Shown: positions 1-59,386 of the stretch, piece by piece
How positions within the stretch are numbered: the first letter of the stretch is position 1
Layout: each line of letters starts with the position of its first letter
Source: Amoebophrya sp. A120
Taxonomy: Eukaryota > Protista > Dinoflagellata
Length of the DNA: 64,000 nucleotides
Direction of reading: 5' to 3'
Assembly: GCA_905178155.1 (NCBI GenBank)
Contig: CAJINV010000003.1
Coordinates: forward strand, 331,091 to 395,090
Translations under genes and position numbers: made by a program
Notes under the pieces: generated by a model
Seen by the model: only the letters and a program-made list of their open reading frames with translations
What the model was told of the DNA's origin: nothing
Database searches by the model: none

Positions 1-3000
1 CCGGGCCGTGGCGGAACCCAAGCAGCCCGAGGCGGACTGGTTCATCGTGGGGGCGGGGAACGACAACGAGAAGCCCATCGACGAGGACGAGTTGCTCGCG
101 GAGCTCCGCTATCCTGTGCAAAGGTATCGTACTCGTAGTCACTGCAGTCATGCATTACAAATCTTTTCCCTAAGGCAAATCCGCATTGCAAATTTGATTT
201 CTCAATCTGAGGAAATTTGTAATGCATTTATACGAGTGCGATACTTCTGGTTCTGCAGTTCATATCCACGCCGAAACCGGGAATCCGGACTACCAGCTGG
301 AAAAGGAACTGCGCCCCATCGCGAACAACAACGACCTGATTGCCTGGCTGGTGCGGTCCATTCTGTCGCACCGCGCCAACGTGAACATCATGAACCTGCG
401 GGGCGACACGCCCGTGGTAACGGCGATCCGCAACGGCCACAACTGCGAGGTGGTGAAACTGCTTCTGGACTACAAGGCGCACGTGCAGTATCGCAAGCGC
501 CCGCTCATCGAAACCGAGCCGGACGAGGAACTACCTCCCGAAGAGGAAGAAACCGATAACAACAAACCGCCGGACGACGCCGAGGACAAAGACCGGCGGA
601 AGGTTCTAGACGACGAGCAGTACCTGTCGGCCCTGACGATCGCGGTGAAGTGCCGCCGGTCACCGGAAACGCTGCTGACGATTCTGATGCAAAAGAAGGT
701 GGACTGCAACGTGGTGGATTGTGACGACATATCCTGTGCAAAAGTATCGTACTCGTATTGCAATCATGCATATACAAATCTTTAACTTTATCTTAAGGTA
801 AATCCGCATTACAAATTTTATCTCTCATGCTGAGGACATCGACATTTGTAATGCTTTTATACGAGTACGATACTTTTGCAATGCATACGACATCAAGCAG
901 AAATCGCTTCTGCACTACGCGGTCCGCCAGCGTGACATCGCCTTGACGGCAATTTTACCCTGTGCAAAAGTATCGTATTCGTATAAATGCAAGTCTTGCA
1001 TTACAAATATTTTTCTTAACGCAAATCAGCATGACAAATTTCATTTCTCATGCTGAGGAAATTTGTAATGCATTTATACGAGTGCGATACTTTTGCACTG
1101 CATAAATTTTGCTGCAGTCCAAGCGGACGGAACAGCTGGATTGCAACATCCCGGACTTCCTCGGGTGGACGCCGATCTACGAAGCCATCGACTTGAAGGA
1201 CGAGGCCATGGTGGAGCTGCTCGCGGACTCGCAGCTGCAGATCCGGCAATTCAACGATTTGGGGCCAAAACTGTGGAAAACCGTGAGCGGGTGGCCGACG
1301 GCAGTGCGGAAGCCCACGATCAAGGACCCGAAAACCGGACGGAAGGTGCTGCGCGACCCGACGTATGCATTGCAAAAGAATCGCACTCGTATAAATGCAT
1401 TAAAGATTATTTCCTCAGCATGAAAAAAATTTGTATATGCGGACATACTTCAAGTTTGTAATGCATGATTGCAATACGAGCGCGATACTTTTGCACAGGA
1501 TACGACGCGGGTTAGGGTCGACGTGCTGGACAAGCAGGGGGTTTCGCCGCTGTGCCACGCCATTTTGAAACGGTGGGTCGAGGGGGTCAAGTGCCTCTTG
1601 AAATTTTGGCCCTCGATCGCGTTCTCGACGGGGTTGCCGCTTCGCGTCGCGTGCCGGCTGACGGACGTGGTGACGCGGGGGGACAGGGCCCGCCTGGAGA
1701 TCGTGGACCATCTGCGGATGATTGGGTCCGAGCTATTCCCCTCCGTGGTCGAGCAGGGGCACATATGCATCGCAAATATGTAGTCTGGGTCTGGAAAGTT
1801 GGAACTTGTCATGCTAAAAAGTCTGGATCCGTTGCAAAAAATATATGTGTTGCGTGATTTTTCCCCAGAAAAGTTGTCAGCGTTTGACGGAGTAGTTGGA
1901 GGGAGTTTCTCATGTTCATGTAGGATATAGGCATGGTTGCACTAGAGATCTTACACAATCAATCTGTCACGCTAGAAGGTCCTGCATTCCAGAATCCAGA
2001 CCTCATTGGTCATGGAAAACCCGCGTGACAAGTTTTGCAATATTGTTCCAGACCCAGACAACATATTTGCATTTGATAGCACACCCTGGCGCACGACGCG
2101 GAGCTGATGCGGCTGATCCAGAAGCACGAGGAGGCCGAGAAGCTGAAGCGGCAGCGGGCCGGAATGGATCCGAAGGCTCTGGAGCGGCAGCAAAAGAAGA
2201 AACGCAAGGAACTGGGCCTCCGCGACGACGAGGAGCTCCCCGGCGAGAACGACAACTTTGAGGACCCGGTGTCCTACTACGTATGCGAAGAAAAAAAAAT
2301 ATGTGAGTGTACTTAAATCCGTGATGCAAAACACACAACATAGTTACCGCTGTCATGCTGGCCAGCCATCAACTCCTGTTTTCGTATGTGTTTTCCTTTT
2401 CACGTACAGGCTGCGCATGACAGGTTTTCTCTGTCATGCAGTGACAGGCTTTCTCTGTCATGCAGAGCAAATTTATCATGCTGTCACTCGCCAAGACACC
2501 TACACTCACGCAGTTTTTTTCTTGGATACTACGTGCGCAACTACTACAATGACCCGGGCTCCGACGAAAATTCCGCGGTGTATGCCGCCATGCAAAACGA
2601 CGCCAAACTGCTGGAAGTTCTCTCCAAGTACCGACCGCCACCCGGCGTGGCCTCGCCGGACTACCCGAATCGTGCGCCCACGTCGGACCATCTGACGGCC
2701 GCGCTCTGCGTGCCCAACATCAACCAAGATATGCGAAGAAGACAGTGTTTTACAGTTTTCACATAGTGTGCTGTTCTTGCAGGAGACCAGGCAAGAAGAT
2801 AGATACGTGAAATAGAGGCCTGTCATCTTGCTGGATAGACTCGGGACGAGCCTGGTTTGTTCATACGCGTTGATAGTTGATTTCCCTCACGATGTCTGCA
2901 TTCTTGCGTGTTTTCTCTGTCATGAAGACGAGGAGCACGTTCTTTGTGTTGCTGAGGTTAATACGACAAGGGCAACAAGTGTGTAAAAACAGTTTTTTCT

Positions 3001-4004
3001 GGCCGCAATAGAGGAGTGCGCGCGTATCCTTGTGGAACACAAGGCGGATCCGAACGGGCAAATGTACGTGCACGACGCGATCGCCGCTGCCATCCTGGAA
3101 AACATTCGCGGCAAGCCGAAGAGGGAGGCTTTTCTGAAGGGCCTGGGGAAGTACGAGCTGACGGACCGGCGGGAATTCGAAGACACGATCTTCGCGGTTA
3201 CGCACTCCGACGCGGTCACGCTGCACACGACCCAGATTGGGCTGGGGCGCGCAACCGAGGAAACCGAGGCGCGGTGGGATCCCGCGGTCGCGACGGAGAT
3301 GATCCGCAACCCGCGGTTCAATTTGCACCAGCAAAAAACGGCCGCGAATGTGCTGTCCGTTCCGAGCAGTCGCGGCCGTAACGCTTTGGCGCAGCAGCAG
3401 GAGAAGAGCCAGTTGGTGCGCGGGTTGCCGCCGCACGTGGAGATGCCCCGGGAACCGCCGGCGAAAGAGCGGGAAACGAGTCCGTTGCTGAAAGCAGCAG
3501 ATCAGGAAGACATCATCAGCGAGGACTTTTTGCGCGACCAGGTGTCACATCTGCGGGAGCGGCGAACGCCCGCCATGATTGCCTGTACCACGGGCAAGCC
3601 AGATGTGTTGGCGCTGCTGGACGCCCGCGGAGCCGATATTGAGGCCATGGAATCAACCTCTGGTTGGTCCACGCACATCTACGCCGCACGTGCAAACCAC
3701 CTGCAGAAGGTGGCCCTTGCAAGTCTAAGAAATGCCTGATACTTCAACTTACTTTATTTGTATCTATTACTTTGCTGTGAACCTGAACTTGAAGGGGTAC
3801 GCTGGAGAAGCTCCTTCGCCAAAGAATCTAGGTGGCGCGCATCTTCGCGGAATCGACCGTCTTCACACGAAGGTCTTGCCAGGGTGGGTGTTTTTGGGAG
3901 GTGCTGCAGCACCAGTGGTGACCCGTGTTCGCCAAGATACAACCTGGTGCATGTCCGAAAATTACTTTACTACGTTTGATCATCATGAAAAAATGTATGA
4001 ATAG
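1..4004 (+). CDS. Ankyrin-repeat protein (5'-partial, split by 7 introners; 3' end uncertain, 3709-4004)
   Basis: Removing each element plus one 5-bp TSD joins one frame with ankyrin motifs: NLRGDTPVVTAIRNGHNCEVVKLLLDYKA, DIKQKSLLHYAVRQRD, DFLGWTPIYEAI, DKQGVSPLCHAI, RRTPAMIACTTGKPDVLALLDARGADIE. Confidence 0.8.
110..264. mobile_element. Introner, family A
   Basis: TATCCTGTGCAAAGGTATCGTACTCGTA...TACGAGTGCGATACTT...GCAGTTCATA; TSD TCCGC/TCCAC. Confidence 0.85.
730..887. mobile_element. Introner, family A
   Basis: TATCCTGTGCAAAAGTATCGTACTCGTA...TACGAGTACGATACTTTTGCAATGCATA; perfect TSD CGACA; removal gives DCDDIKQKSLLHYAV. Confidence 0.92.
956..1104. mobile_element. Introner, family A
   Basis: TACCCTGTGCAAAAGTATCG...CGATACTTTTGCACTGCATA; TSD AATTT. 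Confidence 0.9.
1364..1502. mobile_element. Introner, family A (inverted orientation)
   Basis: TATGCATTGCAAAAGAATCGCACTCGTA...GATACTTTTGCACAGGATA; TSD CGACG. Confidence 0.9.
1764..2078. mobile_element. Introner, family B
   Basis: TATGCATCGCAAATATG..TCTGGGTCTGGAA...TTCCAGACCCAGACA..ATATTTGCATTTGATA; TSD GCACA. Confidence 0.9.
2282..2528. mobile_element. Introner, family C
   Basis: TATGCGAAGAAAAAAAAATATGTGAGTGTA...TACACTCACGCAGTTTTTTTCTTGGATA; TSD CTACG; removal gives VSYYVRNYY. Confidence 0.85.
2730..3010. mobile_element. Introner, family C-like, degenerate
   Basis: TATGCGAAGAAGACAGTGTTTTACA...TGTAAAAACAGTTTTTTCTGGCCGCAATA; decayed TSD CAAGA/GAGGA; the 5-bp offset still restores the frame (NINQECARILVEH). 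Confidence 0.7.
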
Positions 4005-4100: not shown

Positions 4101-5952
4101 ATGCGGCGCATTGTTCCACCTCGGTTGCTCCATTCGGGTGGCCGACCCTCATGCGTCGAAACGGGTCGTTCTTCCCTGATATCCGGCAGCGACAGCTGCT
4201 GCTCTTGCACGAAAAGGGAACTTTTTTTCCCTGCTCTGCGTTGCGATTTGAAGACGGGAGGTGATGGAGGCACGTCCAGCTCTTCGTCGAGCAGCAAGGC
4301 CTTCATCTCTTGGCGAAGGAGAATGAGCAGTGCCGTGACGTCGACCCCATCCGCAGACGAACTGCTTCGAGGAGGTGGAGCACCAGCCGGAACTACTTCT
4401 ACTGGACGCACGACAGGACGGACGAGCGAGCTGCAGCACCAGTGGACCACCCGAAACGCGCTCCCGCTTCCGAGCATCGGCGGGACTAGTAGTATCAGTG
4501 CTACTACAGTCCTGCCAACCGGGACGAGGTTTTCGCGAACAAGCGGCAAGAACCAGCCACATGAAGTTCTGCAGCGGCAGTCGTTCTGGGAATTGCGGTC
4601 GGCCTTTCTGGACGAGCTTTTTCGCCAGCAATTCAAGTACCAGTTGAAGCCCCTCGGGATACTGCCCATCTGGGCCCTGCAGCGCACCGTTCCAAGAAAT
4701 GAGTACCGGTTCATGATGGTCGCCACCTTCCCGCTCGTTGCGCTCACCGGAGCTGCGGTGGCTATGCACCTCTACTACACGTCGTCGACCACATCGACCG
4801 GCACCTCCGCGGAAGAGGACGAGGGAACAAGTACAGAAAAAGAGAATTATCCTGCCGGAGCAGCAGTTACACTTACTGCACAGCACCAAGACGTCGGGAC
4901 CACGCGGGTTTTCCAGGTAAACCCGGGCGTACTTTGCAATTGGGCCCTGATGTACGCGTGGATGCTGTTGATCGGAAGGTCGGCAATACACTACGGGCTC
5001 CAGCTCGGGGAATTTGCTGTGCCAAACGTGAGCAGCTGGGGGGGAAACCTGTTCCTGTCCCGCCTGCTGCCGCCGATCGGCTTCTTCCTGCTCGGAACAG
5101 CTCTTCTAACCATGTGCGAAAGCAACGACCACTGGCGCGACGCGAATCAACTCACTCTGCTGGCGTACATTTTCATTTTCTTTCATTTTATACTGCAGGG
5201 TTGGGATTCTGAATGTGATGCAAATTTGAGTTGTAGAAGAACATCTCAACTACAAGCAATTTTGAATTTGTTCATTGGATCAAAAAAAGCTCAAAAAAAC
5301 AGGTTCATGGTGCAATTCTGGTTGTATGACTTCTGGAATTTTCATCACGGCGGACTGGCACCGCAGTATTGGGGTCCCCTGTGCATGGCGCAGTCTATTG
5401 CGTCCATGCTGTGTCTGCAAACGATCGGCTACCTCATGCGGCAGTACAGCGTGGCGACGGCGGAAGCAGGGGAGTTTCGCATTTTCCCCAAGGAGGAAGA
5501 AATCGCAAGAACCGCCACGGTACCAAATGCAAATATGTCCGGGTCTGGAAACTTGTGATGCTAAAATGTGGATGATGGAAACAGTTGCGAATGCAACACA
5601 GCATGACAACTTTTCGAGACGCCTTTTCATAGGCAATCCGCATGAGAAACTGCGGTTTTGCATGTACAAAAGAGGCTGCGACTTGTTTTGTTGGTTATGC
5701 AATACATCAGATTTCCTAGGTATGCAAAGCTAGCATTACAAGTCCCACTCTTCCAGACCAAGACATATTTGCACTGGATAAACGGCAGCAGCCGGGGAGC
5801 AAGAGCAAGCAGCCAGGGGAACCACGATGGGAAAAGCCGCGTCAGGGCGTGGAGCAATAATCGATGACATTAACGCTCACATCGATTCGTGGCTTGGGAT
5901 CTCAGCCTCGAACACGCCGGGGCAAGAGCCTCCTTACAAAGTTGGAACATAA
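4101..5952 (+). CDS. Multi-pass membrane protein, unknown function (start codon uncertain)
   Basis: 485-aa ORF with several hydrophobic segments; continues in frame after the 5521-5780 introner (ATAAAGEQEQ...KVGT*) to TAA at 5950-5952. Confidence 0.6.
5521..5780. mobile_element. Introner, family B
   Basis: TACCAAATGCAAATATGTCCGGGTCTGGAA...TTCCAGACCAAGACATATTTGCACTGGATA; TSD CACGG/AACGG. Confidence 0.88.
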
Positions 5953-9618: not shown

Positions 9619-12600
9619 ATGCCCTTGGTAAACCTGGATGATCTGTTTCCGCCCAGCAGCGTGGAGTCTTCGGGCTCGGACGAAAAACTGGAGCACGTAG
9701 TTTTCTTGGGCGAGAGTAGGCAGAAAGTCACCGTGGAGGCCAGGGAAGAGGGCCTGACCGAAGAGCTGTTGAAGAAGGTATCTAAAGTGACGGGCGTGCC
9801 CGTTCGGTTTCTGCGGCTCACCGCGTTCACTGCTCCTGGGTACGGCGATGACACAGACGAACAGACCACCTGGAAACTTCTGCCGCTGGACACCCGTTAC
9901 AGCCAAACGAAGCAATATGCATCTTCGGATACGGATAAAGGAAATACTAGTACAACTGGTGATGAGGTGGATGGAGATGGAACAGCAAGAACATCCGGGC
10001 CGCGAGGTAGAAAACAACTCAAGTTTCACTTGACGCAAGTTTTGAAGAAGACGGACTGGGTGAGCGTTTTGACAGAAACGCAGCAACTTCTGGTGGCAGA
10101 CGGGACGCTGGCGAACCTGCCAGCCGATGAAGAGATTTCATCTGGCGGTGACGAGGAACAAGACGAGGGGTACTATTCAAGCAGCAGCTCCGGGGGGACA
10201 TCGTCATCAAGTGTCGTGTCCGATGACCCAGAGACCGCTGCGGCAAAGCAGGAGGACGCAGTATCAGAATGAAAAATGCCCCCACCCCCGAACTTGAAAG
10301 CATTTGTATTGCAAACCTTTCCAAATGAAACATTCGCCCTCTTGCACCTATCAGCATCACAGGTTTCCAATCGTGAATAGCGAAAATTTGTATTGCAAAA
10401 GACCCCAGCAAGAGCGGCGCTTGTCATGCAAGCGATGCGATAAACGCCTAGACTCTGCATCAGAAAGATTCATACTCCTTTCATGCATGACAAAAAGGTT
10501 TCATTTGGAAACTTCGCATCACAAATTTTTGCAATTTGAGGGGTGGGGGGCACTTTTCACTGTAATACGCAGAGTGGAGCTACATCGCGTCACTGTGGTT
10601 TCTATCAAATGTAAAAATGTCTGGGTCTGGAAGATTCCGATATTTGTCATGCAGTTTCTCCAAGCTCCACCAAGTCTGGAATGCAGGTCCTAGCATCACA
10701 GGATCTGCAGCCCCTTTGTGATGCCTGTTCTGCATGAGAAATGCCCCCTCAGCATGGCCAGAAATGAGCGCCTTTTATTGCAAGTCACGCAACACAGATT
10801 TTTGTATGATGCGCAACATGCATCACAAGTTGCATCCTTCCAGACTCAGACATTTTTGCATTTGATAGTTTCCCGAAACTGAGAAGGGCGATGTCGCGCA
10901 GGTCTTAGCCGCCATGGGTCGAGATGAAAAGAGTGCGAGCAGAACAAGGAACGACTCTACTTCTATGAAAGGTCGTACGATGAACACCAGAAGTGCTCGT
11001 GCCGGGAGCCGCGGTGCCACGGCAACTGAAGATAGAAGTGATTTTCCGCACCAGAGAATGAGGAGCAACCCTAGAGAGGAAGCCGCGCGGAGAAAAAAAG
11101 AGGAGCTCACAGTGACCTCGGTCAACGCGCCGGACATGAATGGATGGACGCTGATGGGACTTGCTTGTGCCCGGGGCCTGCCAAAATTGCTGACGTACGT
11201 GCTAGAAACCCTGGCCAGCGTCGAGCTGGTAAATCTGAGTCTTCGCGTGGAGGAAACCTGTAGTTTTTTGCGTAGTAGTTCGTCCATTTTTGCAGATGGG
11301 GATGCAATTGAAGAAGAAGAAGTGGAACAAGAACGGGAGAAAGGCTTCTTGAAATCACCCGCACAAGAAAGACCTCGGACGTCAAATCTCAAACGGAATC
11401 AAGACACGCCCGAAATGAAAATCAGACAGCGTTGGCGAAACCTTCCACCGCTTTTAGCCGCTATTCGCTATAACCCGTCGGACGCCTCCTCCGCGGAGGT
11501 GGTAGCAATCCTGCTGGATCAGGGTTTCGATGTGAACCCGAACGTGCGCGAGGGAGTCCGGTCGGACGGCTACACACCCCTACTGCTCGCGATCAAGAAG
11601 GCAAAATGGCAAACCGCAGCCGTGCTCTTGCAGAACGAGCGCATCGACGTGAACTGCATTTTGGAACAGGAAGTACCAGCTGCACGGACAGCAGCTGGAA
11701 CTACTGTTGAAAATAAAGGCCGCGAAGAAGGAGCAGTAGAGCCTTCAACACTGGTGGAGGGATCTTCTTTACGTTCGCAGGAAGCTGCGCTCGTCGGAGG
11801 CGATTTAGTAGACCAAGATGTTGTAAAGAAAGCGGAGATCATTCTTGTGCCAAAGATCATGAAGAAAAATACGAAGATTCGCACGAGATGGCCGTTGGGA
11901 TATTTTTCCAAGCGGTGGCGCGAGCTGCTGAAGCCTGAGGCGGAGGGGGAGCGGCAATTTTTGGCAAAGCTGGTGGCGCACCCGCTGATTTCGCCGGATC
12001 TTGTGCCGTCGGCCAAGAGCAAGGAGGACAAGAACAAGAAAACTCGAAGATCGAAATCCCCCCCACCACTGGACGGGGAGAAGATTTTTGAGCAGCCGAA
12101 GCCGAAGCGCATCCCCACGTGGTGTAGTTCGGTGATGGAGGCTCCCCCGCATGGGCAAAACGCTCTCATCTCCGCCTGTCGCTCGGGCAATGTGGTATTC
12201 GTGGAGATTTTTCTCACCCACTGCCTGCCAGAGAAGGTGTATCCCAAGAAAAAAGTGTATACAGTTTTTTTACACGACATCTGTATGCAACTTCAGCAAC
12301 ACAATAGACTTGCTCTGCATTTACAGATGAGAAATACAACTTGCAATGCGTCGATTCATCGTCCGAAGGGGAAACACGTATCAAACGAGGCTCGCATGCC
12401 TTTGCGGCATGAGAGAGGTTGTCTGTCATGCGCGTTCTGCAAGAACACATTGTATGACTGTAACAGTAACACTTTTTTCATTGCACAAATTGACGCGCGT
12501 GATCAACCGGCTCGACGACTTATCCTGTACAAAAGTATCGTACTCGTAGTGCAATCATGCATTACAAATTTTCTTGTTAAGTCAAATCCGCATATACAAA

Positions 12601-21640: not shown

Positions 21641-23539
21641 ATGGTTTCAGACCAGCAGTCCCTGATGCGCGAGGACCACTACCAGTATGGCGGCAGCATG
21701 TCGCTGAACCGCGACGGAGGTCCGGTGGTCGACATCGAGCGTTTCATTGAGGCGGAGCGAAAGTTCGTCGCTTTCCAGCAGGCCGGGGATCACGAGAAGG
21801 CTGTGAAGGCTCTGGAGGCGGTCCTGCGGCAAAACAAGCAATTCGTGCAGAACCTGGAGGATACGCTGCTCAGTTCCCTGTTCGAAAAACTGGCCGTCGG
21901 CTACAACACGCTGGGCATGAAATTTCTGAAGCTCGGGAAGACGGACCTCAGCTTGCGCTACTTCCAAAAGTCCGAAGTGGTGACAGACCCCGCAAACTTG
22001 CACATCCACACGAACACAAGGTACGTCTATTCTGATGCTATGCTGCTTCAAGCGCTGGGCCCTTTTTCGAATGATATTTCTAAGCTTACCTACCTCGCGG
22101 CCACCTTTTCTAACTCGGCAAAATCAGATTGGTCCTACGTGCGGTGACGTACAACAACCTTGGCTGCTTCTACAAAAGTATGAACAAATTGCACACCGCG
22201 CTGCACTACCTGCGAAAGGCCCTCGTCATTGAAGAGCGCGGCTTGGCAGAGAGAAGACACATGGAGGACGAAAATGGTACAAACATGGGAGTTCCACATG
22301 CATTTATTTTTTCTTGTTTGGACGTCGCTATTCGAAAACGAGATTGGATTCCGTTTTCCTATTCCGTGTGCATCTTGTCAATCTTTGATATGACGGGGTA
22401 TTGCGGTAGACCTAGTGGTCCTCTGATCCCCCGTAGGACGAAAACGAAACTATACTTAACTACACACAATCTGAAATAAATCGGGAAATCGAAATACCAG
22501 CAGAGGATAACCCTGATCCGGACGAGAGTGTAGCAGCTGCTCCCGCAACATCCGGCTCTTCGTCTGGGGCACAGAACCCAGCGGCTACGCACCTGAACTT
22601 GTGCGCGCTGTTGTCGCAGATGTCCATGTATCGAATACAAATATCATATCTGGGTCTGGAAGAGTCATGCTGTTTTTGCATTTCACAGGATGTCTGTCAT
22701 GGAAGCCCTAGCATCACAGATTTCGAGAAGCTTCCGCATTGCTTAATCCACATGACAAGTCCCCCACTTTGGTGACAGGAAGTGGACATCTTTTGCTGCC
22801 TGCTATGCATGAGAAATTTGTATCTGAGTCTGTGTTGTGAAATGCGCATCACAAGTTCGCATCCTTCCAGACCCAGACATGTTTGCAATGCATACCATGC
22901 ACGAGAAGGCGCTGTACCACGCGCAGAAGGCGATTAAGTTCCTGCAGCAGGACGAGGCGCGGCGGAAGGAGTTGCTGCGGCGGCAGGAGGAGGACGGTCC
23001 CGCCGCCTCGGACCAACAAACCGAAGCCGCGGTGCAAGCCGCGGCCGCGACGCGGCAAGACGAGTCTCTCACCCCCGTGGCATACTTCAACATGGGAGCC
23101 GAATACGAGCACTTGAAGTACTACACCGAGGCGCTGGATTATGACAAGAAATCAAAGGTTTCGTCAGAGCACTGGTTCTTGTGCAAATAAATTCGCGAAT
23201 GGATCAAGCAATGTCGGCTCGATGTGTAGTGCTTATCTATGCATGACAGTATCAGTACTGGAGAAGGAAATTGATAGCACCTGCGATGTTGATTAAGGTC
23301 AACTAGGAGAACTTTGACAGCAGGAGCTGCATGTCATTTCAGTTTCGTCAAGTTTTTTGTGAACTGTGCTGGTGAAAATTTCGTTTCTTGCCGATAAGAA
23401 AGCCTACGGCCAGGCGTACGAAGCCTGTCTGTCGGAGCTCGGTGCCGGACACGCCCTCACCTCGAAAATCCTGGACAGCATCAAACAGCTGAAAAAAAAC
23501 CTGGGGCCTTCTAAAACCAATGCGAAGGGGAAGAAATGA
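21641..23539 (+). CDS. Tetratricopeptide-repeat protein (multi-exon)
   Basis: TPR motifs AVGYNTLGMKFLK, AVTYNNLGCFYK, ATHLNLCALLSQM, VAYFNMGAEYEHL; mixed GT-AG introns and two introners; stop TGA at 23537-23539. Confidence 0.8.
22629..22894. mobile_element. Introner, family B
   Basis: TATCGAATACAAATAT..TCTGGGTCTGGAAG...CTTCCAGACCCAGACATGTTTGCAATGCATA; TSD CCATG. Confidence 0.9.
23140..23396. mobile_element. Introner, family F, old copy with eroded TSD
   Basis: TATGACAAGAAATCAAAGGTTTCG...GAAAATTTCGTTTCTTGCCGATA; removing the element plus 5 bp gives EALDAYGQAYEAC in frame. Confidence 0.65.
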
Positions 23540-24260: not shown

Positions 24261-27037
24261 ATGATTCGACAGAACATGTTGACTACGCAAGATCCCGCGC
24301 TGCTGCCGTCACCGCGGGCTAGGAGTTCTTGGCTCGTTGTTTTTTTCTTCGCTTCTGCGTGTTTTCATCTGCTTTCCCGCCCGGCGGTCGCACGCAAGCG
24401 GCGACAGGAGGTGGAGAAAATAAACGTGGCGCGATCGAACTGGGTCACCAAGAGCAGCAGCCCTACAGCGCACAGCCGCGAACTGTCAGACCCGTTGAGG
24501 GAGGGCATCACGTTGACCAAGGATGTTTTCTACGGCCGGGCGATCATCCAGGTGCCCCGGAGCAAGGGCTTCCTGGGCGTGCAGAACCTGAACCAAACCG
24601 CGCACGGGACGCTACGAAAGCAGCTGCTGGAGGAATTCGCGTATGACAAGTACAACATCACGTCGGAGAACGCGAGACACGTGTTGCAGTCCTCGATCTC
24701 CCTGATCGCGGAGAACCGAGACCCGAATTCCCGTTTTCGCAAGTATTTGGACCTTTTGCAGACCGAGAACATGCTGGTTTTTACGCTCAACGACACCCAG
24801 CGCAAAATGCTCCAGGGCACAACGCAAGAGAAAACCCCCGAGGAGTTGTCGTCACTGGTGGAACTGGTCCACAGCGCCGCCGGGAACTTCACGCTGGAAC
24901 CGCAGGCGGGTTCGGACGCCAGCGAGGTGCTAGGAAAACCAGTGACGTGGCGGGAGGCACAGTGGGCGGTGTCGGCCATACTCACGCGGGCGCTTACCAT
25001 CTGGCCGCCAACCGAAGACCGACCCAGTGACCACGGGGAAGACCCCGCCACTGGGGACTCGGTATCATCTTATTTGTAGTTGTTGTAAGGGCCGCTGGAG
25101 GCGCTGGTGGAACGTTGTGAGAAAGATGAAACTCAATCTTTTTCTTAGGCGTATATGCAAGCAGCATGGGTAAACTACATCTCCCTACATCAACGCGGCC
25201 CCTTCCTCTGGCACTACTAGTGCTGCGCAAATGAGGAAACTACGGCAACATGCTCAGGATGTAAAAAGCAAACTAGAACTACGTTATATCAGATCAAAAT
25301 GTCCCTTGTGCCCATTCCGGAGCTGCTGTACGCCAATTACCATCCGGACGGGGGCACGGCCATCACTTTCCAGGAGGAGCGCATCGTGATTGACGGTCAG
25401 GTATCCTCTGCAAAAGTATCGTACTCGTAGTAATCGCATTTATGCATGACACATCTCTTTTTCAAGGTAAACCAGCATGAGAAATTCCATGTGTCATGCT
25501 GAGCAAATTTGTAATGCGATTACTACTAGTGCGATGCTTTTGCATTATTTCATATCAGGACGTGGATGTGGTGCTGCAGATCGCCCGGCGCGACATGGGC
25601 AAGGGCGAGGAGAACTTTTTGTACCCCGGACGCCTGTCGAATTCCGATCTGCTGCTGCGGTACAACCTGACGTTCAAGAAGAACCACGTCGGCATTGGCG
25701 ACAACTCCACCATATGCATTCGCAAAAGTATTATTGATCGTACTTCTAAGTGGTGCCTGCAATACAAATTTGCTCAGCACGACAAATAGAATTTGTAATG
25801 CTGTTTTAGCTTATGCTTAGGACGAAGCCGATTTGTCATGGAGAAGGAGATCTGCAATTAATACTTTTGCAATGCATACACCATCCCGGGGTCGCTGGCA
25901 ATGAGCGGGGACGACACGCGGAACATGCGTTCCAACAAAAACAAGCAGCGGCGGGAATTCGAAAAGTACAACTGCACGGCCGAGGACTTTGAGCTGCGGT
26001 TTTCGCCGAAGGGCTATCCGGACCGCAAGTTCTGCCGCTGTTGGCGCGTCAACCACTTCATGGAGAGTGGCTGGTATTCGCCGGCTTTAGTGAAAAAAGT
26101 GCACCTGCTATGGAGAGAAAAAAGTTTGTCACAGTCACTATCTTGGAGGTTTTGCATTACAAATTTTTTGAACATCACAACTTTTCCTTGTATTGCAGAA
26201 CCACTAAGGGAAATCCCGTATGAAGTTTGGCTGTGATGCATTTTTACGCATGCCAGGCATTTTTTGTATTGCAAAAATTGCCCATGAGTGATCGTGACGA
26301 ACTTTTTTCTTCTTATACCTGCTCGACAAGTGGCCCCCGCCCCCGGCCTACACGGACGAGGAAATGTGTATGGTGTTCATCTCAAATGTTACATTCTCAA
26401 GTGTTACATGAATTTGTCATGCAAGAACACCAAAAGTGAACGCGGGAAGATTGCGCGCTTTGCATTACAAATTTGGAACAGATTTAGTCCCTGTTTAGCC
26501 CTTCGATGATTTGTCATGCAAAACACCTTGATCGTGTGGCGGCTTATGGCATTTTTGCATGACAAATCATGTAACAGTTGAGAATGTAACGTTTGAGAAC
26601 GCCATAATGTGGTTGGCCCTCACCCAGGCTGACAACCAGCTCAATGCGCTTTTCAAGCAGGTATGTTGTTTTTGTGAGCTTCTGTTGAAAAGTAGTAGGA
26701 GTGACAAATTTACGTGTCATCATGTCGCGCGTACGTAGAGGTAGATGATGTCAAAGTTAAAGTTCTCTACTTGATCATTTTCATTCGCCTTCCTCCCCAT
26801 AAAACTACGAACTAGGGTAGTTTTCTTTCTAACAAAAACAAACAGCATTGCAAGTGGCGGCGCGCTCGACTCCGGAATGGTATTGACCGTGCTACTCTGG
26901 AAGCTTTCAAGGTTTCAGAGGATGTAATCGATCAGAAACTTTACAAGATGCGCATCGAAGAGACTAAGACCTTCAAGCACTGCGAAGAGCTTGCCAATCG
27001 GATTTCAAATGTAGAGTCCAAAAAAACTGAGCTGTGA
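24261..27037 (+). CDS. SET-domain (Rubisco LSMT/SETD3-like) protein with N-terminal hydrophobic segment and C-terminal KTEL
   Basis: WAVSAILTRA, LVPIPELLYANYHP, GEENFLYPGRLSNSDLLLRYNLTF; 4 introners plus GT-AG introns 25062-25292 and 26661-26845; ends ...VESKKTEL*. Confidence 0.7.
25402..25554. mobile_element. Introner, family A
   Basis: TATCCTCTGCAAAAGTATCGTACTCGTA...AGTGCGATGCTTTTGCATTATTTCATA; TSD TCAGG. Confidence 0.88.
25713..25878. mobile_element. Introner, family A variant
   Basis: TATGCATTCGCAAAAGTATTA...TAATACTTTTGCAATGCATA; TSD CACCA. Confidence 0.87.
26109..26317. mobile_element. Introner, family G
   Basis: TATGGAGAGAAAAAAGTTTGTCAC...GTGACGAACTTTTTTCTTCTTATA; TSD CCTGC. Confidence 0.87.
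26369..26606. mobile_element. Introner, family E
   Basis: TATGGTGTTCATCTCAAATGTTACATTCTCAA...TTGAGAATGTAACGTTTGAGAACGCCATA; TSD ATGTG. Confidence 0.9.
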
Positions 27038-31054: not shown

Positions 31055-32699
31055 AACTGCAGCAGCTTGTTCACACTAGAACTAGTGAGAAAGCTGCATA
31101 TGTTGTAGGGTGATATTATCTTGACCTTGTTCACGACACTATAGGTATGACTATGTATGATCAGCAGATTTTTTGGGATCGCAAAATCTATGAAGATGAG
31201 CTCTAATCTAAGTACTACTTCATGGCAATGACTCGTGGGCTTCTTGCTTCCGTAGTGTGCTCGTGGGTTCGTCTTTTCTTCGGAAGCACAAGCGCCGGAA
31301 GCGGAGCCGGCACACGCAGATCAATTTCAATACTTAAAGATGATTCTCGATCAGGATTGTGGTCACACAGGAATTCTGCATTATGATTTTGATTATTTGA
31401 ATATCTTGACAAACTGCATCTCAGGAACAATCCAAGACACGACAGATGAAGAGTTTTTTTTTTACTTATTCATGTGGTACGCTTTTATTCATTTCGAAAG
31501 GAAATCTGATAAACATAAATCGGATGCATGTGTTATTTTTGCACTTATTGTGATGAGGTTTAGAAATGTTGATTTCCGTTTTTGAAAGTACCGTCAAATT
31601 AGAAGTACAAGTTTTGGACTTTTGGGTGCTTTCAGTGACTGCGCCACTTATTTCGTGAAAGACAAAGAGTGGGGGGCCGCCCGCTTGGAGCGGGTGTCCT
31701 CGGGAAGCGCCTGCGCATACTTACACGCCCAGGAACGCACGACGGCAGGGTAGGATACGGCACTGCTGTGTCGTCCTGCGCCCCCCCCCGTTTATACAGG
31801 CACCAAGACAGGAGATTCTGGGGCAGAAAAAGGGATCTTGATTTGGCAGCAGCCATACTGTAATACCATAAACCTAGAGTAGTAAAGACTGACAAAGAGC
31901 GCTCAACAACTAGCATATGAGAATTGCCGTCGTGTATAATTTTTTATTAGTGTTGTACGATTTGAATTTTTTATGTCGTGCTCGTGTATGATTTTCTTTT
32001 TCTTGATTAGTGTATAATGACTATGGTTTAGTCCAGGCTTCATGTCGGGAAATCAGTGCCATACCAAAGATCGCATCTTACATAGACCTATGAATGTTGT
32101 ATATCTATATTGCTCGCGGAAAGAGGCAGCAGCATTCGCTAGAGTGCAGGATGCACCACGATGAACGCGGCACAAGGCTTGTAGCCCGCCGCTGCCATTG
32201 AAAGATCGCCGTAAAAAAATCAATCAGCACGACGCGAGTAGTGATGAGGACGCGTTGATGCTGCCATCAGTTCAAAAAAATTGAGGTGTGCAGATGGATT
32301 CACCTATGCAATTTCATGCTTGATGATCATCCTGTCACTGGCACTGGCACCGGTGGAAGCCAAGTGTTTTCTCGGGTTCTGTTCAAAAGTGTTTACGTTT
32401 GAAGTCGTTGTTTCATTCTTGTGTGTTGCTCTTCTTGTTTCTCAAGGATCAGAGGAAGTTCCAATTCCAAAATTACTGAACAAGAAGGATCCTGGTCAGA
32501 TTTTCTTTTTCGTTGAACTTGAAAAAGATCTTTGTTTCTTCACTCTCAGACCCGGGCTCCTCATATCACTTTACTTGACGGCTTTTCTTTTCGTCGGCTT
32601 CACTTCTTACTTCTTTTTCTTGCAAAAGAAAAGACGAACATAATATTAATAAACTCAGACGTGCAATTGGAATAGGAATAGCATACCTCTGTAGAAGAA

Positions 32700-40100: not shown

Positions 40101-43100
40101 AGGTTATGCGACGTCCCTACTATGCCTATCCTGCATGGCAAACTTGTTCAAAACTGCACAGCTTTTGGTAGTCACGCAACACAAATTTTTGTACGATCCA
40201 GACTTAGCATGACAAGTTCGCATCCTCCCAGACCCAGACATATTTACAATGCATATCCCGCGCCACAGCGACGCGTACGTGGAATCGAAGGGGACCAAGG
40301 GCGACCTGCCGCTGATCACCTCCGTGCAGACTTGGAACGCGTGCCTGCTGAACGCACTGGCCCTGCCCGCGCTCCCGCGGCTGGGGCGCTGTCCGCTGCG
40401 GCTGCGCAACGGCTTGGCGCAGATCCCCTACTACGAGGAGCAGCAATACTACAAGCAAAGCAGCGCTAGTAGTGCAACCACCGCCAGTTCCAGCACTGCG
40501 CAAACCACAACGACCGCGTCAAGTGCCACCTCGACCACCGGGAGCACGGCGCACTTGACGCAAGCCCTGACCACGACGGAATTGTTGCACTTCTCGCGGC
40601 GGATCGGGTTCGCGCCCCAGGCACTGAACTTCCACACGGATATCGCGACCGCGCGGACCAATGCGGTGCAGCAACCGACCGCGCGCAACCCGGACGGCTC
40701 GGCCAACACCACGGTTACCCTGCAGCAGGCGATTTCCCGGGTGCTCGCGCCCGCGAACACCGCCACCCCAGCGGCGGACACGCAGCTTTTTTTGAAATGG
40801 AAGATCCGCAAGTTCAACGCCCTCGCGCTGTGGAGCAAGGAACGGCAGATGCGTCGGAATAACTGGGAGGAGATCCTGCAGCTGCCCTACCCGGCGCAAG
40901 ATTCCTTTCACAACCGCGTGCAGCGCTGGGACCTGGCGCAGTTCTTCGACATGAGCTCTTTGTACATCAACCCCAACAACCCGCACGACGGACGCGTCGA
41001 CCTGCACGCGAACTACGTTGGGAAGGGGCACTTGCTGCTGCAGCACCTGCAGACAAAGGCGACCATCTTCTACATGGCGCTCCCGGTGAGCAAGGCGACG
41101 GGCAAGGCCAAAGACAATTGGCTGGACGACGACGGGAAGGTGAAGGACGAAACCAAAGTGGCCTGGTACCAAACGGTAATGCAGGTGCCGGACGTGAAGG
41201 AGATCACGGCGCTCACCGTGCAGATATCAAATGCAAAAATGTCTGGGTCTGGAAGATTTTGAGATTTGTCATGCTTGTCTGGCATGACCAAAAAGTTTGT
41301 GATGCGTGTCCAAGAGGAGACCCTTTTGCCTGTCATGCCAAAACGCACTTTGTCATGGGGAACACGCAACACAAGGAAGCGCAGGCATTTTTCATGCTTG
41401 CCTGTGCATTACAGAGCATTCACTATTCCCAACGCAGCATTACAAGTTTCCAGACCCAGACATTTTTGCAGTTGATAGCAGAAGGTGATCGACGACCGGA
41501 AGTGCAGCACCGGCGGCACCGCGACGGACCCCTGCGACCCCGAGTGCGACTTGACCAAGTTTCTGGACATCTACCACAACAATTCCACGGCGATGTTCAA
41601 GCCCGAGCACTACCAAATCTGGAAGGGCCCGGACGGCACGAAGCAGACCGCGCCCTGGTTCAAGCTGAAGACCTGTGCGAAGCCGGACAACGATATGGCG
41701 TTCTCAAATGTTACATTCTCAACTGTTACATGAATCTGTAATGCAAGAACGGCGAAAGTGAAAGGGGGAAGATTGCGCCCTTTGCATTACAGATTTGGCA
41801 CAGATTTAGACGCTGTTCAGCTCTTCGGATATTTGTCATGCGAAGTAGCTCAATCGTGGCGATCTTGGTGGTAAATTTGCATGACAAATCATGTAACAGT
41901 TGAGAATGTAACAGTTGAGGACGCCATAGACGATCGCAAGACCTTCGAGCACGAGCGCGCGAATCAGCTGAAACTGAAGATTATCAAATGTAAAAATGTC
42001 TGGGTCTGGAAGAATGCATGTTTGTCATGCTTGTCTGGCATGACTCTTAAATCTGTCACGCACGTTACCCAAGAGCTCCATTTTTCTGTGATGCAGAAGC
42101 GCAGTTTGTCATGCAGAATAGGCAACACCTAGAAGCTCAGAAACTTGTCATGCTGAGCCAGCACCTGTGGCCTCATCATGAGACGCCACCGAGCATCACA
42201 AGTTTCCAGACCCAGACATTTTTTCATTTGATAAAGATCGCCCAGTACCTGCAGGACCGCTACTTCGCGGACTTCACATCGACCTCCCTGGGGCAAATCC
42301 GGGCGCGCATGACCTGGTTCTTCCTGAACTTTTACGCGACGCCCAAAACCGCGGTGAACGACGACTTGCTGATGTACAAGCAGTACGAGACGCTGTGGCG
42401 GGGCAGTCTGGGGAACTACCGGACGCTCGCGTTACAAATGTTCAACGACAAGGCGCTGCGGAAGTCGCTGGACCAATTGGAAGAGGTCGAGTGCGGCACC
42501 GCGCCGATCGAGAACTTCGCCCGGGAGTGGTTTGAGCGGTTCACGTATAAAATGCAAATATGTCTGGGTCTGGAAGAGTCCGAACTTGTGATGCTGCATT
42601 TGGATTCCAAAAAAATCTGTATTGCATGACCAGCAAAGGGAATGCAATTTTGGCTACGCGGAGAGACCATTTGTCATGCGACATAGGCATCGCGAAGGCC
42701 TCAAAAAGTCTGTGATGCTAGGGCATGCATCACAGACATCATGGCCCATGCAAAACGTGCATGACAAGTCTCAGACAGACGTGCACGGACATGCAAAACG
42801 TGCATGGCCCATGCAAAACGTGCATGAAGGATTCGTGGCCGGGAGATGATGGTGATGGCACTTCGGTGTCCGCCTGACCTACCTTCCCTGCGTGACAGCC
42901 ATCTGCGGCCGTTTGCAAAGGGGGAGGCAAAGTGTGCCGCACTTCTGTTTAGCATGACAAGTCTCAGAATGTTCCAGACCCAGACACTTTTGCATTTGAT
43001 ATCACGGTGGGCCTGCGCGCGCACAACGAGGGTGACGTGAAACGGCTCAGCAAAGGGCTCATGAACTGCAAGGACGACTCGGAGACGGCGAATCTCGACT

Positions 43101-46004: not shown

Positions 46005-50180
<4,176 letters not shown>

Positions 50181-52440: not shown

Positions 52441-52659
52441 AACTTCTGGGACTGGAAAGAAGCAAATGAAGAAATGTGGTCTCAACGAAACGGAAAAGTT
52501 GGCGGTTTAGAAGAAGTGCCGGGATGCAAACAAGCCCGTGAAAGAGAGAAAATCCAGAAAAAGAAATCAAATTGAATAAGTGGCTGCGGCGATCTGTGCC
52601 ACCGATGTTGACCGCTGTTTTTCTCGAACGAATCGCGGCCGGTCGGGCGTGCGTCGATG

Positions 52660-53209
52660 CTTTCGTCGCTGATGTTCTTGTGGTAGGTAGACCTGTGTTG
52701 TTGATTTGCTGGTAGCTGTTGTCTTCCAGGTTGATTTTACATGATTTACTGTGCTCGATAGGTATATTGAGTGCATTTTTTTTTGTTTTCGATGTCTTTA
52801 TAAAAAACTACTTACGGTTCGGAATCGGGTTACTGTTCGAGTTCGAACTGGAAGGAAGTAGTGTCGGTACTTTTGCAGCTGATCTAGCACGTACCGAGAG
52901 TAGATTCGTGTTGCGTAGAGAGACCGGCGAGCAGCATATTCATCAAGGGCTTCCGGGGGTAGTAAGGCCCAATTAAAGGCCCGATACCAATTGGAGCCCG
53001 TGTGGCCCAATTAAAGGCCCAATTTATTATCATGGGAGCCACTCGGCTCTCCTGTTCGTGCTGGACGAGCTGGACCTCGTCCGCTTTGGCTGCTCTACTC
53101 TTCTACTTCAGTGTTTTATTTTCCGAAACTCGGGCACTGGACGGGCATTTCTGTTGGGTGGGAGGAGTATCGTGGTCCGACTGCTGCGACACGGGTGGCG
53201 CGTTCGGGA
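52660..53209 (+). pseudogene. Truncated 5' duplicate of the methyltransferase gene, lacking the introners
   Basis: Aligns by eye to about 53860-55697 once the 54351 and 55521 elements are removed; the frame ends shortly after GGAFG. Confidence 0.75.
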
Positions 53210-54141
53210 CTTGGAATGGCCGAAGGCCATGAAGGGCGTGGCTGGGAAGCAGCCAGCGCGCGAGCTTGGGGGAGAACGGGCAGCCGTCTTCGGCGGGGCT
53301 GCCGCGCTTCTCCTGCCGGGCTGCCAGGAGTGGGCCTTACGCTCCTGCTCGTTGAAAGCGCGTGGCTTTCAAGTGCCCTGCTATTGGAAATGAATTACTT
53401 GCATTGCCTTGGCATAGGAAGTATTTTCTTTGTTGTGCTAGTATATTGCAAGCAATTCGTGTTCAGCGCCAGCTCGTTGAAAGCAATGCGCCTTCAATAT
53501 AAGGGGTCGCCCAGCAGCTGCCACACTCTAGCCTTTCGGAAATGCGTTCCCAAGGTTTGCCGGAAATCCTGGGAGCATATTTCGGCAAGGCCCCCACGTC
53601 GGCTTTGTGCTCTGGCCGGCAGTAGGTCTGAAGACCTCGCGCAAAATCATCCGACGTCGGGGAGATAAAGAAATGCGCCCCTGGGATTTTCGCCGCGTCG
53701 AGACCTGGGATCATAGTTCTGCAAAACCCCCTCGTAAGATGATTCTGTGCGGGTTTTTCTGTGTTTCAAGATCAGAACACAAACTCGAGTAGCACTCTCG
53801 TGCTCTGGCTTGCAGAACTGTGCTCCTAAGATTTGCTGACATCTGATGTTCTTTTTTATTTGTCGCTGATGTTCTTTTTTTGTTGATTTGCTGGCAACTG
53901 TTATCTTCAAGGTTGATTCTACATATGTTACATATATGTGTGTCCATTTTTCTCCGTTTTCGATGTCTTTTAACATTTACGGTTCGGGTTACTCTTCGAG
54001 TTCGAACTCGAAGGAAGTAGCGTCGGTGCTTTTGCAGCTGATCTAGTACCGAGAGTAGATTCGTGTTGTGTAGAGAGAGCGGCGAGCAGCATATTCATGA
54101 AGGGCTGCCGGGGGTCGTAAGGCCCAATGAAAGCAGCTATC

Positions 54142-57100
54142 ATGGGAGCTACTCGGCTCTCCTGCTCGTTTCTTGCAGGTCGTGTTGCTTCAGAGGTGGG
54201 GGGTTCTGGTGGAAATTTTTTGAAGAGCGCAACAGCAGCACGATATAATTCGGCCTGGACGAGCTGGACCTCCGCTTTGGCTGCTCTACTCTTCTACTTC
54301 AGCGTTTTATTTACCGAAACTCGGGCACTGGACGGGCATTTCTGTTGGGTTATTCAGGGAAAATTTGTCACCGTCACCGTTTTGGCATATTCATTTTCCG
54401 ACCCAAAAAAATTGATTTTTTCCTGATATCCCACACATGCCCATATTGATCAGTTGTTGCAAATGTGGCCCGCGAGGCATTACACTTCGAGCATGGTGGC
54501 CCGTGTAGTTGAACGCAATCCAGAAGCGCCCCGGAATGGCTTTGCCGTCGTACAGACCAAAGACGCGGCTCCAGAAGGTCCGTTGCGAGGAGGCTGGCTG
54601 CTGGCGCATAGGGGCTCGACCCTTGCTGGGGGGCCTTCTCCATGGTGCGGCTTGCGATGTTGGGTTGCTCCTGGGAATGTCGGGCCCTTGTCACTCCTTG
54701 ACGAAAGGCCTCCGGCAAAGGACCTCCAGAACCCAGAAAAAAGCAGCAAAATTTTAAGCAAATTTAACGACCACCTGGTGACAAATCCCAGAAATTTTAC
54801 ATTTTGCACGGTATGGTGGACGTTTCCGAGCCAGATTTGTTACTGGTGACAAATCAGCAAATTCTTGCATTTTGCAAGGTATGGTGGACGATTGCGCACG
54901 GACCAAAAATTCTTGCAGCTGCAAGAATTTTTGATCAGTGCGCAATCGTCCACCATACCGCGCAAAATGCAAAATTTCTGGCATTTGTCACCAGTTCCGA
55001 TTTTGGGCTCCCAGAGTCCACCATACCGTGCAAAATGCACGATTTTCGAGATTTGTCACCAGGTCGTCGGTTAATTTGCTCAAAAAATTGCCTTTTTTTC
55101 ACGGGTAGTGGAGGTCCTTTGCTGAAGGTCTTTCGTCAAGGAGTAAGATGTGCCCGAGATGCTAAGGGGCAACCCAGCAAGACCAGCCACAGTATTCCGA
55201 TCCTCCGCGGACGGAAATCTGGTTGCTCTAGTGTCAGTAGACAGCCTCCCAGCCAAGGACCTTCTGGAGCAGCGGCTTTGGCCTGTATAACGGCAGCGCC
55301 GTTCTGGGATATTTCGGGACTACCTTCAGCGAGCTAGGTCAGCGCGCTTGAAACGCAGTAGCTAGCTTGCCGCAGTTGCAACATGTGGCAGACACGGACA
55401 CGCATACAAAGCCAGCAGAAATTCAAATTTTTTTGCTCAAAAAATGAATATGCCAAAACGGTGACGGTGACAAATTTTCCCTGAATATGGGTGGGAGGAG
55501 TATCGTGGTCTGACTGCTGCTATCCTGTGCAAAAGTATCGTACTCGTAGTAATCGCATTTATGCATTACAAATCTTTTTCTAAACGCAAATCCGCATTAC
55601 AAACTTAATCTGTAATGCTGAGCCAATTTGTAATGCATTTATACGAATACGATACTTTTGCAGTTCATAGCTGCGACACGGGTGGCGCGTTCGGGAACGA
55701 AGCGTGTTGGACCGGGGAGTTCACGTTCGAGCGATGTTGCGACCGCCAGATGCAGGGTCTGGAGGACGAGTGGGGACCGAAGCTGCTGCAGAATCTGAAG
55801 ACGACGTTATCCTGAGTAAAAACGTACCCACACCAGAGTCAGGATGGGGATTTTGCAACACAAACCTAGGAGCTTTGTAAGTCACGCATGACAAGTTGCA
55901 CTATGCAGTGTAGTGCAGGTTAGCAAGTGCAGCCGCGTCACAGATTCATCTGCTCATCCTGTTCACAGCATCACAAATTTCAAAACACGATTGGAAATGG
56001 CTCTCATGGAGATGCGCATTACAAGTCTTCCTGTCTTTGCAAATCTGCATTACAACTCTGGTGTGGGTACGTTTTTACTCAGGATAGACGTCGCACGAGG
56101 AGATGGAGGAGAGCCTGCGGAAATCACTGACCGTGGTGGAGTATGCATTGCAAAAGTATCGTACTCGTACTAATTGCAGATATGCATGACAAATCTAGCT
56201 GTTAAGGTAAATCAGCATTACAAATTTAGGTTTGTAATGCTGAGCTAATTTGTATTGCGATTTATACTAGTGCGATACTTTTGCACAGGATATGGAGAAC
56301 CGCACCATGAGTGCGCACAGTAGCGCGCTCTTCCTGGTCTTGCTGCTGCGTCTGCAACAGCGATTCGCGGAGGCGGAAGAGCTGCAGCACCAAATCCCGC
56401 AACTGCAGCTGTCCGTGAATTCCGCCACCGGCGTGTGGGAAGGGAGCAGCAGCGTCGGGTACCACATGCACGACGTCGATTTGGTGCACACCGGTTTGAT
56501 ATCCTGTGCAAAAGCATCGTACTCGTATAAATGCATTACAAATTTGCTCGGCATGAGAAATAAAATTTGTAATGCGGATTTAGCTTCAGAAGAAAAATTT
56601 GTCATGCGTGATTGCAATTACTACGAGTACGGTGCTTTTGCATTGCATATTTGATGCCTTTACTGCAAAAATACAACGCCCGTTCCGTGCTGGACCTGGG
56701 CTGCGGTGTGGGCTACTACGTCCGCGACTTCCGGACCAAGTACAGGTCCGCCAGTCAGGCGCCATTGGACCTCGTGCTCGGCGTGGACGGCAACCCCGAT
56801 ACGGTGGAGATTACCGACGGGCGGTGCACCGTGGGCGACTTGTCGAAAAAGCTGGACCTCGGCTTTCGCTTTGACGTGGTGATGTCCCTGGAAGTGGCCG
56901 AACACATTCCCCCGGAGTACGAGCAGACGTTTGTAGCGAATTTGCTGCGACACAGCGGACACCTGCTGGTGTTGTCTTGGGGCAACCAGCCGGGGCACGG
57001 CCACGTCAACAACAAGGCATCGGGGGAAGTTCGAAGCGTCTTCACCGCACACGGCTTTCTTTTCGACGAGGAAGAGAGTCGCAGGCTTCGCACAGCCGCA

Positions 57101-57719: not shown

Positions 57720-57872
57720 CAAACACATAGCTGCTCCACCTCCTGTGTGATAATAGACACACAGCACGAACAAATTATGCCTCGTGTGACGACGTCTCAG
57801 ATCGAAGCGAGCTTGCGTGGCCTGGGACTGGCCCTGCCGTCTCCCGCCGCACCCGCCGCTAACTACATTCCT
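57720..57872 (+). pseudogene. Truncated 5' duplicate of the RidA gene, lacking the introner
   Basis: ATG at 57777, MPRVTTSQIEASLRGLGLALPSPAAPAANYIP, with a single CTGGG; stops at 57908. Confidence 0.75.
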
Positions 57873-57904
57873 TACTCACGGAACGCCGGGCCACTTCAGC
57901 TCGT

Positions 57905-59337: not shown

Positions 59338-59386
59338 GGCGTCGACTGTGGCCCGCCGCACCCGCCGCTAACTACATTCCGTTGAC

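Follow-up and report, generated by a model that had tools for sequence, protein, structure and literature searches.

Introner-derived introns of Amoebophrya sp. A120 are probably removed in one dominant register relative to their terminal inverted repeats

Introduction

More than 60% of the introns of the dinoflagellate Amoebophrya sp. A120 are non-canonical (PMC7789003), and how tens of thousands of non-GT-AG introns are removed in Amoebophrya has been an open question since 2021. The introners of this strain have inverted repeats (IRs) that open with TAT, followed by seven variable bases and a run of A, and they are flanked by direct repeats (DRs) of 3-5 nt (Farhat et al. 2021, PMC7789003). 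In the accessible sections of that paper no clear splicing signature is recognised, the splice sites are described as variable relative to the hairpin and the border is given as unknown. The junctions were called variable because the target site duplication (TSD) hides them. Here we analyse 64,000 nucleotides of A120 DNA (GCA_905178155.1, contig CAJINV010000003.1, positions 331,091 to 395,090; hereafter the window), one of whose encoded proteins carries the name Amoebophrya sp. A120 in its sources. The organism and the elements are those of the earlier study; the present analysis uses introners with mismatched TSDs to read a single register, and finds neither G at intron position +1 nor a terminal AG to be favoured.

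The closest described systems share parts of this organisation, as far as the accessible sections of their descriptions go. Introners of Aureococcus, Micromonas, Symbiodinium, Polarella and Florenciella are likewise non-autonomous elements with terminal inverted repeats (TIRs) that become introns at a set position with respect to the TSD; some insert in both orientations, and in some the TSD supplies both splice sites (10.1101/2020.10.14.339549; PMC9860276). Introners of the Aureococcus type, however, need GY/GA and AG, either carried or recruited from the target, while the Amoebophrya elements need neither. In the tunicate Fritillaria borealis, non-GT-AG introns likewise derive in bulk from miniature inverted-repeat transposable elements and are attributed to a modified U2 spliceosome (10.1101/2025.08.15.670264; PMC11282704), a preprint reporting that the U2 spliceosome removes these TIR-derived introns (10.1101/2025.08.15.670264). 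The Fritillaria introns favour certain ends (AG-AC, AG-AT) and U2AF is duplicated in this tunicate, whereas in Amoebophrya positions +1, -1 and -2 are free and U2AF appears single-copy in A120 (Table S6 of PMC7789003). The nonconventional introns of euglenids and diplonemids likewise have offset paired ends, short direct repeats at the junctions and a removal that is unexplained, and their 'intermediate' introns posed the same question of conversion between intron types (PMC4770533; PMC12621601). Their stem, however, pairs +4..+6 with -8..-6 (CAG/CTG), while that of Amoebophrya starts at +2 and -5 (TAT/ATA); they are also thought to be non-spliceosomal, whereas the donor core of the Amoebophrya elements matches the GUA of the genome's own canonical introns.

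Results

In ten plus-strand genes of the window we identified 33 TIR elements, each with a 5-nt TSD, and 15 canonical GT-AG introns; seven of the canonical introns were seen in contigs and eight were deduced from the reading frame. The position of a junction within the TSD is expressed as k, the count of left-TSD bases kept in the mRNA, so that the register of the original prediction, with a donor 1 nt before TAY and an acceptor 4 nt after RTA, is k = 4. Transcript evidence came from contigs assembled from four runs of one sample, which we guessed to be RNA and which display majority junction forms only. In these transcript-like contigs the element plus 5 nt was skipped at 14/14 window elements with a listed joint; the elements are removed together with one TSD length. 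Since the same contigs also skip at least seven canonical GT-AG introns, they behave as RNA.

Where the two TSD copies are identical the cut cannot be placed, but eight window elements have differing copies. The junction could be read at four of them (the others being 12240 and 12739, whose gene is not covered by contigs, 41694 and 49827):

109..268, plus strand: test intron with element 110-264; TSDs TCCGC/TCCAC, differing at position 4; ends CT-CA at k = 4
23139..23400, plus strand: test intron with decayed element 23140-23396; TSDs TGGAT/AGAAA; ends TT-AA at k = 4
2729..3014, plus strand: test intron with decayed element 2730-3010; TSDs CAAGA/GAGGA; ends AT-GG at k = 4
5520..5784, plus strand: test intron with element 5521-5780; TSDs CACGG/AACGG; ends GT-CG at k = 4

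At element 110 the joint 108->269, with one ambiguous base and found in 3/3 runs, keeps the left G, which allows k = 4 or 5; the annotated protein P0001 reads ELRAE here, in agreement with the contig junction although not independent of it. The transcript of element 23140 reads TGGAA (joint 23137->23400, one ambiguous base, both contig runs), which allows k = 3 or 4. The joint 2727->3014 of element 2730, with two ambiguous bases, leaves k = 3, 4 or 5, and the joint 5516->5782 of element 5521, with four, leaves k = 1-5. The sole register that fits all four readable junctions is k = 4, with four left and one right TSD base kept, as had been predicted; for a cut placed at random among k = 0-5, all four allowed sets would contain the predicted value with p = 0.046. 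We conclude that k = 4 is most likely the dominant register. The mismatches themselves show a corresponding break, their GC polarity reversing between TSD positions 4 and 5 (4:0 vs 1:5, p = 0.048).

The elements of the window are the published A120 introners. They carry the same signature, a TIR opening with TAT, seven bases and an A-run, with TAY at the 5' end in 33/33 and AAA at +12..+14 in 26/33; the 5-nt TSD copies are identical in 25/33. Most are strongly similar to another window element, a few old ones being without such a match, and the family also occurs at 151 metagenome loci. Fourteen of the 33 were seen skipped in transcripts with the frame restored, and long open reading frames return once all 33 elements (and the canonical introns) are taken out of their genes. 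Canonical introns differ from them in several respects: a GCATGAC-type core is present in 32/33 elements vs 1/15 canonical introns, and the ends, which are paired in 33/33 elements, have pairing energies of -16.3 kcal/mol or better in elements vs -12.4 or worse in canonical introns. A repeat at 54798, which lies in a non-coding stretch and has an offset TSD, was excluded from the catalogue.

A larger set was obtained by a motif scan of metagenome contigs, the 151 loci being those of a related genome (for the 60 compared, identity to the closest window element had a median of 79% and reached 91% at most). It comprised 208 distinct elements; orientation was attempted for 176, and the 117 with a clear stop-free frame were kept. 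The orientation method was correct for 31/33 window elements in leave-one-gene-out trials, and the ~150-nt family is present in genes in both orientations. For comparing the two TIR arms, only arms that the search motif had not fixed were used (102 arms from 202 anchors); the excluded anchors were 32 without a partner and others that were duplicate, cut short or unoriented.

These sets allowed the splice signals to be compared with those of the canonical introns, whose donors read GTA in 15/15 and GTAY in 13/15, in line with the original remark that many ordinary introns here start with GTAT or GTAC. Among the six registers, k = 4 is the only one with T at +2 in 33/33 window elements; it puts U at +2 and A at +3, matching 15/15 canonical donors. 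Beyond these two bases no canonical signal is apparent. For 13/14 spliced window elements GT-AG is found in no register of six. It had been noted that 15 of 35 left TSDs end in G, creating GTAT/GTAC, but our recount gives 14/33 against 33.7% expected from codon-phase-matched exon composition (p = 0.19), which is chance level. In the metagenome set at k = 4, G is at +1 in 29/117 elements (30% expected), AG ends the intron in 10/117 (10.3 expected) and both GT and AG are present in three. With the window included, T is at +2 in 150/150, G is at +1 in 43/150, again at chance level, and AG is at -2/-1 in 12/150 (12.9 expected). The hallmarks of U2-type introns, GT/GC at +1/+2 and AG at -2/-1, are not those of introner-derived introns. 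The proposed relaxation of +1 and of the acceptor was, if anything, understated: no preference for G or AG is detectable, and that G+1 and AG have both been lost is clearer than originally claimed.

The arms of the TIR are not equally conserved. Changes in the terminal TA were found in 0/48 donor-side vs 4/54 acceptor-side metagenome arms (p = 0.12), and in 0/81 vs 6/87 when window elements are added (two-sided p = 0.029). The third arm base shows a weak opposite trend, being changed in 3/81 donor-side arms (+4) vs 0/87 acceptor-side arms (A-7; p = 0.11). The suggestion that the transposon end mimics donor positions +2 to +4 therefore holds for +2 and +3, unchanged in 81/81 donor-side arms, while +4 seems less fixed. 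The A at -7, the mirror of +4, is unchanged in 87/87 acceptor-side arms and is a candidate branch base, although not significantly so; no branch motif common to all element families was recognisable.

Three further observations concern targets and canonical introns. A palindromic C...G target preference, suggested by C at TSD position 1 and G at position 5 in 14/33 window elements each, was rejected, the larger set showing no enrichment of G5. In the canonical introns (e.g., 5165-5302, 26661-26845, 47767-47988), 5' ends are rich in T and 3' ends, ahead of CAG, are rich in A; a pyrimidine tract is lacking, and a purine follows as first exon base in 14/15. A general pairing of their ends was also rejected, as the two ends of one intron pair not significantly better than ends taken from different introns (-8.1 vs -7.8 kcal/mol, p = 0.24); such pairing is compositional, not specific.

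The original prediction further traced one of these canonical introns, at 25062, to the decay of an introner and held that introners, as they age, drift to canonical introns. The features concerned lie in a single gene:

24261..27037, plus strand: host gene encoding P0007 (524 amino acids), with canonical introns at 25062 and 26661 and introners at 25402, 25713, 26109 and 26369
25062..25292, plus strand: canonical GT-AG intron, 231 nt, phase 0; contig joint 25060->25292, with GT..AG at cut +1
25397..25401, plus strand: left TSD TCAGG of element 25402; at k = 4 its first four bases are exonic and its last G is intron +1
25402..25554, plus strand: intact introner of the ~150-nt family with a TAT...ATA TIR; skipped as 158 nt; hairpin z = -7.7
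25555..25559, plus strand: right TSD TCAGG of element 25402; at k = 4 its first four bases are intronic and the fifth exonic

Intron 25062-25292 does read G-TATCATC...GTTATA-TCAG, and element 25402 does give GT...AG when one left and four right bases of its TSD are intronic. This element, whose contig joint (25396->25555, 158 nt) is ambiguous over five positions, is the sole one of the 33 window elements that reads GT-AG, and does so at k = 4 only.

The alternative that 25062 began as an introner and later acquired G+1 and CAG, with old introners drifting generally, would be compatible with a fixed register. It draws on the TAT at +2 and the ATA at -7..-5 of this intron, on the best 20-nt end complementarity among the 15 canonical introns (score 6.2), on the IR and DR organisation of 15% of A120 canonical introns, which we count in its favour (PMC7789003, accessible sections), and on a euglenid GC-AG nonconventional intron that suggested type conversion (PMC4770533, likewise). 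The traces of a TIR are, however, weak. The 20-nt score has a shuffle p = 0.025 before allowing for selection and is reached by 0/210 cross-pairs, but p = 0.26 over 30 nt, and a score of 5.6 is found for two further canonical introns. Of the 15 canonical introns, one has RTA at -7..-5, the chance of at least one being 0.54, and we take the ATA of 25062 to be a coincidence.

Other properties of 25062 are those of an ordinary intron. It has GT...YAG with the genome's GTAY donor, is excised in transcripts and has T-rich 5' and A-rich 3' ends like other canonical introns. A 5-nt direct repeat is absent, the would-be TSD (CTCGG/TCAGA) matching at 1/5 positions; the TAT...A-run signature is reduced to a 20-nt trace, with no A-run at +12..+14; the GCATGAC-type core is lacking; and the end duplex has -9.1 kcal/mol vs -16.3 for the weakest element. 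No significant hairpin was found (fold z = -1.0, against -7.7 for element 25402), and BLAST against the 33 window elements gave no family match (best E = 0.69). The intron sits between Ser and Ile codons, and the orthologues P0008 and P0009 keep S-I-K-M across the junction. As Ser-Ile-Lys-Met is conserved in three orthologues, an introner origin would need at least three changes in the intronic TSD copy. A 4-nt TSD (TCGG/TCAG) was rejected: the excised length would break the frame relative to the three orthologues. A metagenome search for relatives of the host gene confirmed 0/159 candidate stretches. We conclude that 25062 is probably an ordinary intron, and an introner origin with general drift is doubtful.

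The direction of change in the elements themselves also speaks against drift. At TSD positions 3-5 the canonical base is in the intronic copy in 3 cases, in the exonic copy in 12 and in neither in 10 (p = 0.035), so that the mismatches lead away from GT-AG; the skew may be due to AT-biased mutation of introns. The most decayed elements seen spliced, 23140 and 2730, still end in TT-AA and AT-GG. These data indicate no net drift to GT-AG. GT-AG arises by chance at birth in 4/150 elements, and conversion of an introner into a GT-AG intron may occur occasionally. Relaxed splicing removes the pressure on introners to become canonical.

Discussion

Based on our results, we propose that an introner together with one TSD length would leave the RNA in one fixed register, as an intron N-TAY...RTA-NNNN, and that the mRNA would keep four left and one right TSD base. 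A U2-type spliceosome would read only U+2 and A+3, as in canonical GUA donors, the checks on G+1/G-1 and A-2 having been dropped together, while the TIR stem would bring the ends together and set the 3' cut four bases beyond the stem, replacing the acceptor signal. Since k = 4 aligns the TIR with the genome's GUA donor, U+2 and A+3 are probably read by the donor site of the spliceosome, and in the absence of an acceptor motif the stem is the obvious guide for the 3' cut. In spliceosome structures, positions +1 and -1 are checked jointly, which would make a simultaneous loss of the two coherent. Terminal non-Watson-Crick pairs are discussed, within its accessible part, in the tunicate preprint (10.1101/2025.08.15.670264). 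Given the register, we think it likely that a spliceosome with the stem as its ruler is at work, and we lean towards the full explanation, in which the register is fixed, a U2-type spliceosome acts on U+2/A+3 and the stem sets the 3' cut. For the bolder statement that one rule covers the 'variable' introns, with G+1 and the whole 3' AG dropped, U+2/A+3 read and the stem as 3' ruler, we consider the chances to be even.

A fixed register would be a testable rule, as it singles out U+2, A+3, a 4-nt spacer and A-7, predicts the map position of lariats and would permit correct gene models. If the rule is true, a TAT...ATA element flanked by a 5-nt TSD would act as a complete intron in either orientation, wherever in an exon it lies; the TTA elements of strain A25 (all TT-) would follow the same rule, and the invariant A at -7 would be a candidate branch base. 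A spliceosome unconstrained at +1, -1 and -2 would go beyond that of Fritillaria and would explain how the elements insert at any place in exons without cost. The test with mismatched TSDs is usable for any introner with ambiguous junctions.

The published A120 data can be read in the same way. In the accessible parts of PMC7789003, the top non-canonical motifs of A120 are NT- in 9/9 (Table S4) and those of A25, where the IR starts with TTA, are TT- in 9/9, and U1-70K, U1A, U1C, U2AF and PRP8 are listed for both strains (Table S6). The register is implicit in Table S4 but not stated there; Fig. 3 and Figs S19-S23 may show more. A full-text search, outside which most subscription papers lie (including Roy et al., Current Biology 2023), found no paper fixing the register, and the accessible parts of further literature were also consulted (PMC12130899, PMC12005148, PMC11453091); the register appears not to have been stated in print.

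The main rival to a spliceosomal removal is a structure-guided, non-spliceosomal route with the same fixed register, in which a cutter and a ligase would act on the TIR stem, making a staggered cut 1 nt ahead of the stem and 4 nt past it, and the match to GUA would be incidental; a route of this kind is suspected for the nonconventional introns of euglenids and diplonemids. Such a route would suit ends that are paired in every window element, the lack of G+1, AG and a common branch motif, the fact that a U1 small nuclear RNA (snRNA) was not found, and the precedent of euglenid introns with an offset stem (+4..+6 with -8..-6; PMC4770533, accessible sections). The register nevertheless falls on the one of six positions that reproduces the GUA donor, TA never changes on the donor side but does on the mirror side, an asymmetry that a symmetric stem cutter would not need, and the spliceosomal proteins are nearly complete. 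We regard this route as improbable.

Several observations weigh against our explanation of a fixed, spliceosomal register. Only 4/8 informative elements were read, in one sample and from contigs that hide minority junctions, and some common k across four elements would arise by chance with a probability of 0.23. Table S4 is not independent support, as the placement of ambiguous junctions is unstated in the sections seen. Element 23140 is spliced although its whole-intron fold is not significant (z = -0.44), and the GC polarity of mismatches is absent at TSD positions 1-3 (11:14). Finally, TSD mismatches in the 117 metagenome elements are at third codon positions in 23/33 and synonymous in 20/33, against 37-44% expected for an unconstrained intronic copy (p = 0.006-0.08, depending on assumptions); this excess fits both TSD copies reaching the mRNA at times.

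The synonymous excess keeps alive a second alternative, in which the cut slides within the TSD, the register being preferred but not fixed, slippage is silent and selection keeps the two copies identical. The 20/33 would fit both copies coding at an omega of 0.2-0.3, minority junctions would be invisible in contigs, and the Fig. 3 legend of PMC7789003 (accessible sections) may be counted for it, as may the chance of a common k given above. The common k is, however, the one predicted beforehand; element 110 excludes k ≤ 3 and element 23140 excludes k = 5 and k ≤ 2; and a single joint form per element was found among the joints listed, in all runs. The excess is not seen in the window, where 5/13 mismatches are synonymous and 8/13 are not, including all three at 23140, and the pooled 25/46 lies between the fixed-register and sliding models. 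Sliding seems to us improbable as well. That the joined contigs are DNA alleles without elements (empty sites or precise excision) is very unlikely indeed: the runs were only guessed to be RNA and a DNA-run control is absent, but the same records also skip canonical GT-AG introns and one lacks seven consecutive elements in one gene.

A few individual features deserve mention. Element 12240-12487 is decayed, with a 3' end of ACA, not ATA, a TSD matching at 3/5 positions and a GT donor at k = 4. It is read through as coding in the annotated protein P0010, from which its neighbours 10262, 10603 and 12521 are removed, so that P0010 yields no register; the element may be poorly spliced, which would imply that a GT donor is not enough to make up for damage to the 3' arm. 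The element at 42546-43001 is a 456-nt member of a ~260-nt family, ~200 nt longer than its relatives and with internal repeated motifs near 42750-42830, possibly reflecting a nested insertion or duplication. The protein of the host gene at 24261-27037 is without a precomputed Pfam match; its motifs show a putative resemblance to SET-domain (Rubisco methyltransferase-like) proteins.

An Rfam scan of the window gave 0 matches at the gathering score, with no snRNA gene in the window. The stretch 32123-32270, also without an Rfam match at that score, is the sole one covered by raw reads of another strain; these reads share part of it and then continue with other letters, which suggests a dispersed transcribed repeat or a small RNA. 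The repeat excluded from the catalogue, at 54798-55060, combines inverted with direct repeats (CCACCATACCG motif), has an A/T-rich flanking repeat that is offset, and is unlike the TAT family. Local duplications form repeat-rich non-coding blocks at 52600-54350 and 57700-60900, where, for example, 59390-59560 is found again at 59760-59890 and 57820-57880 again at 60850-60910.

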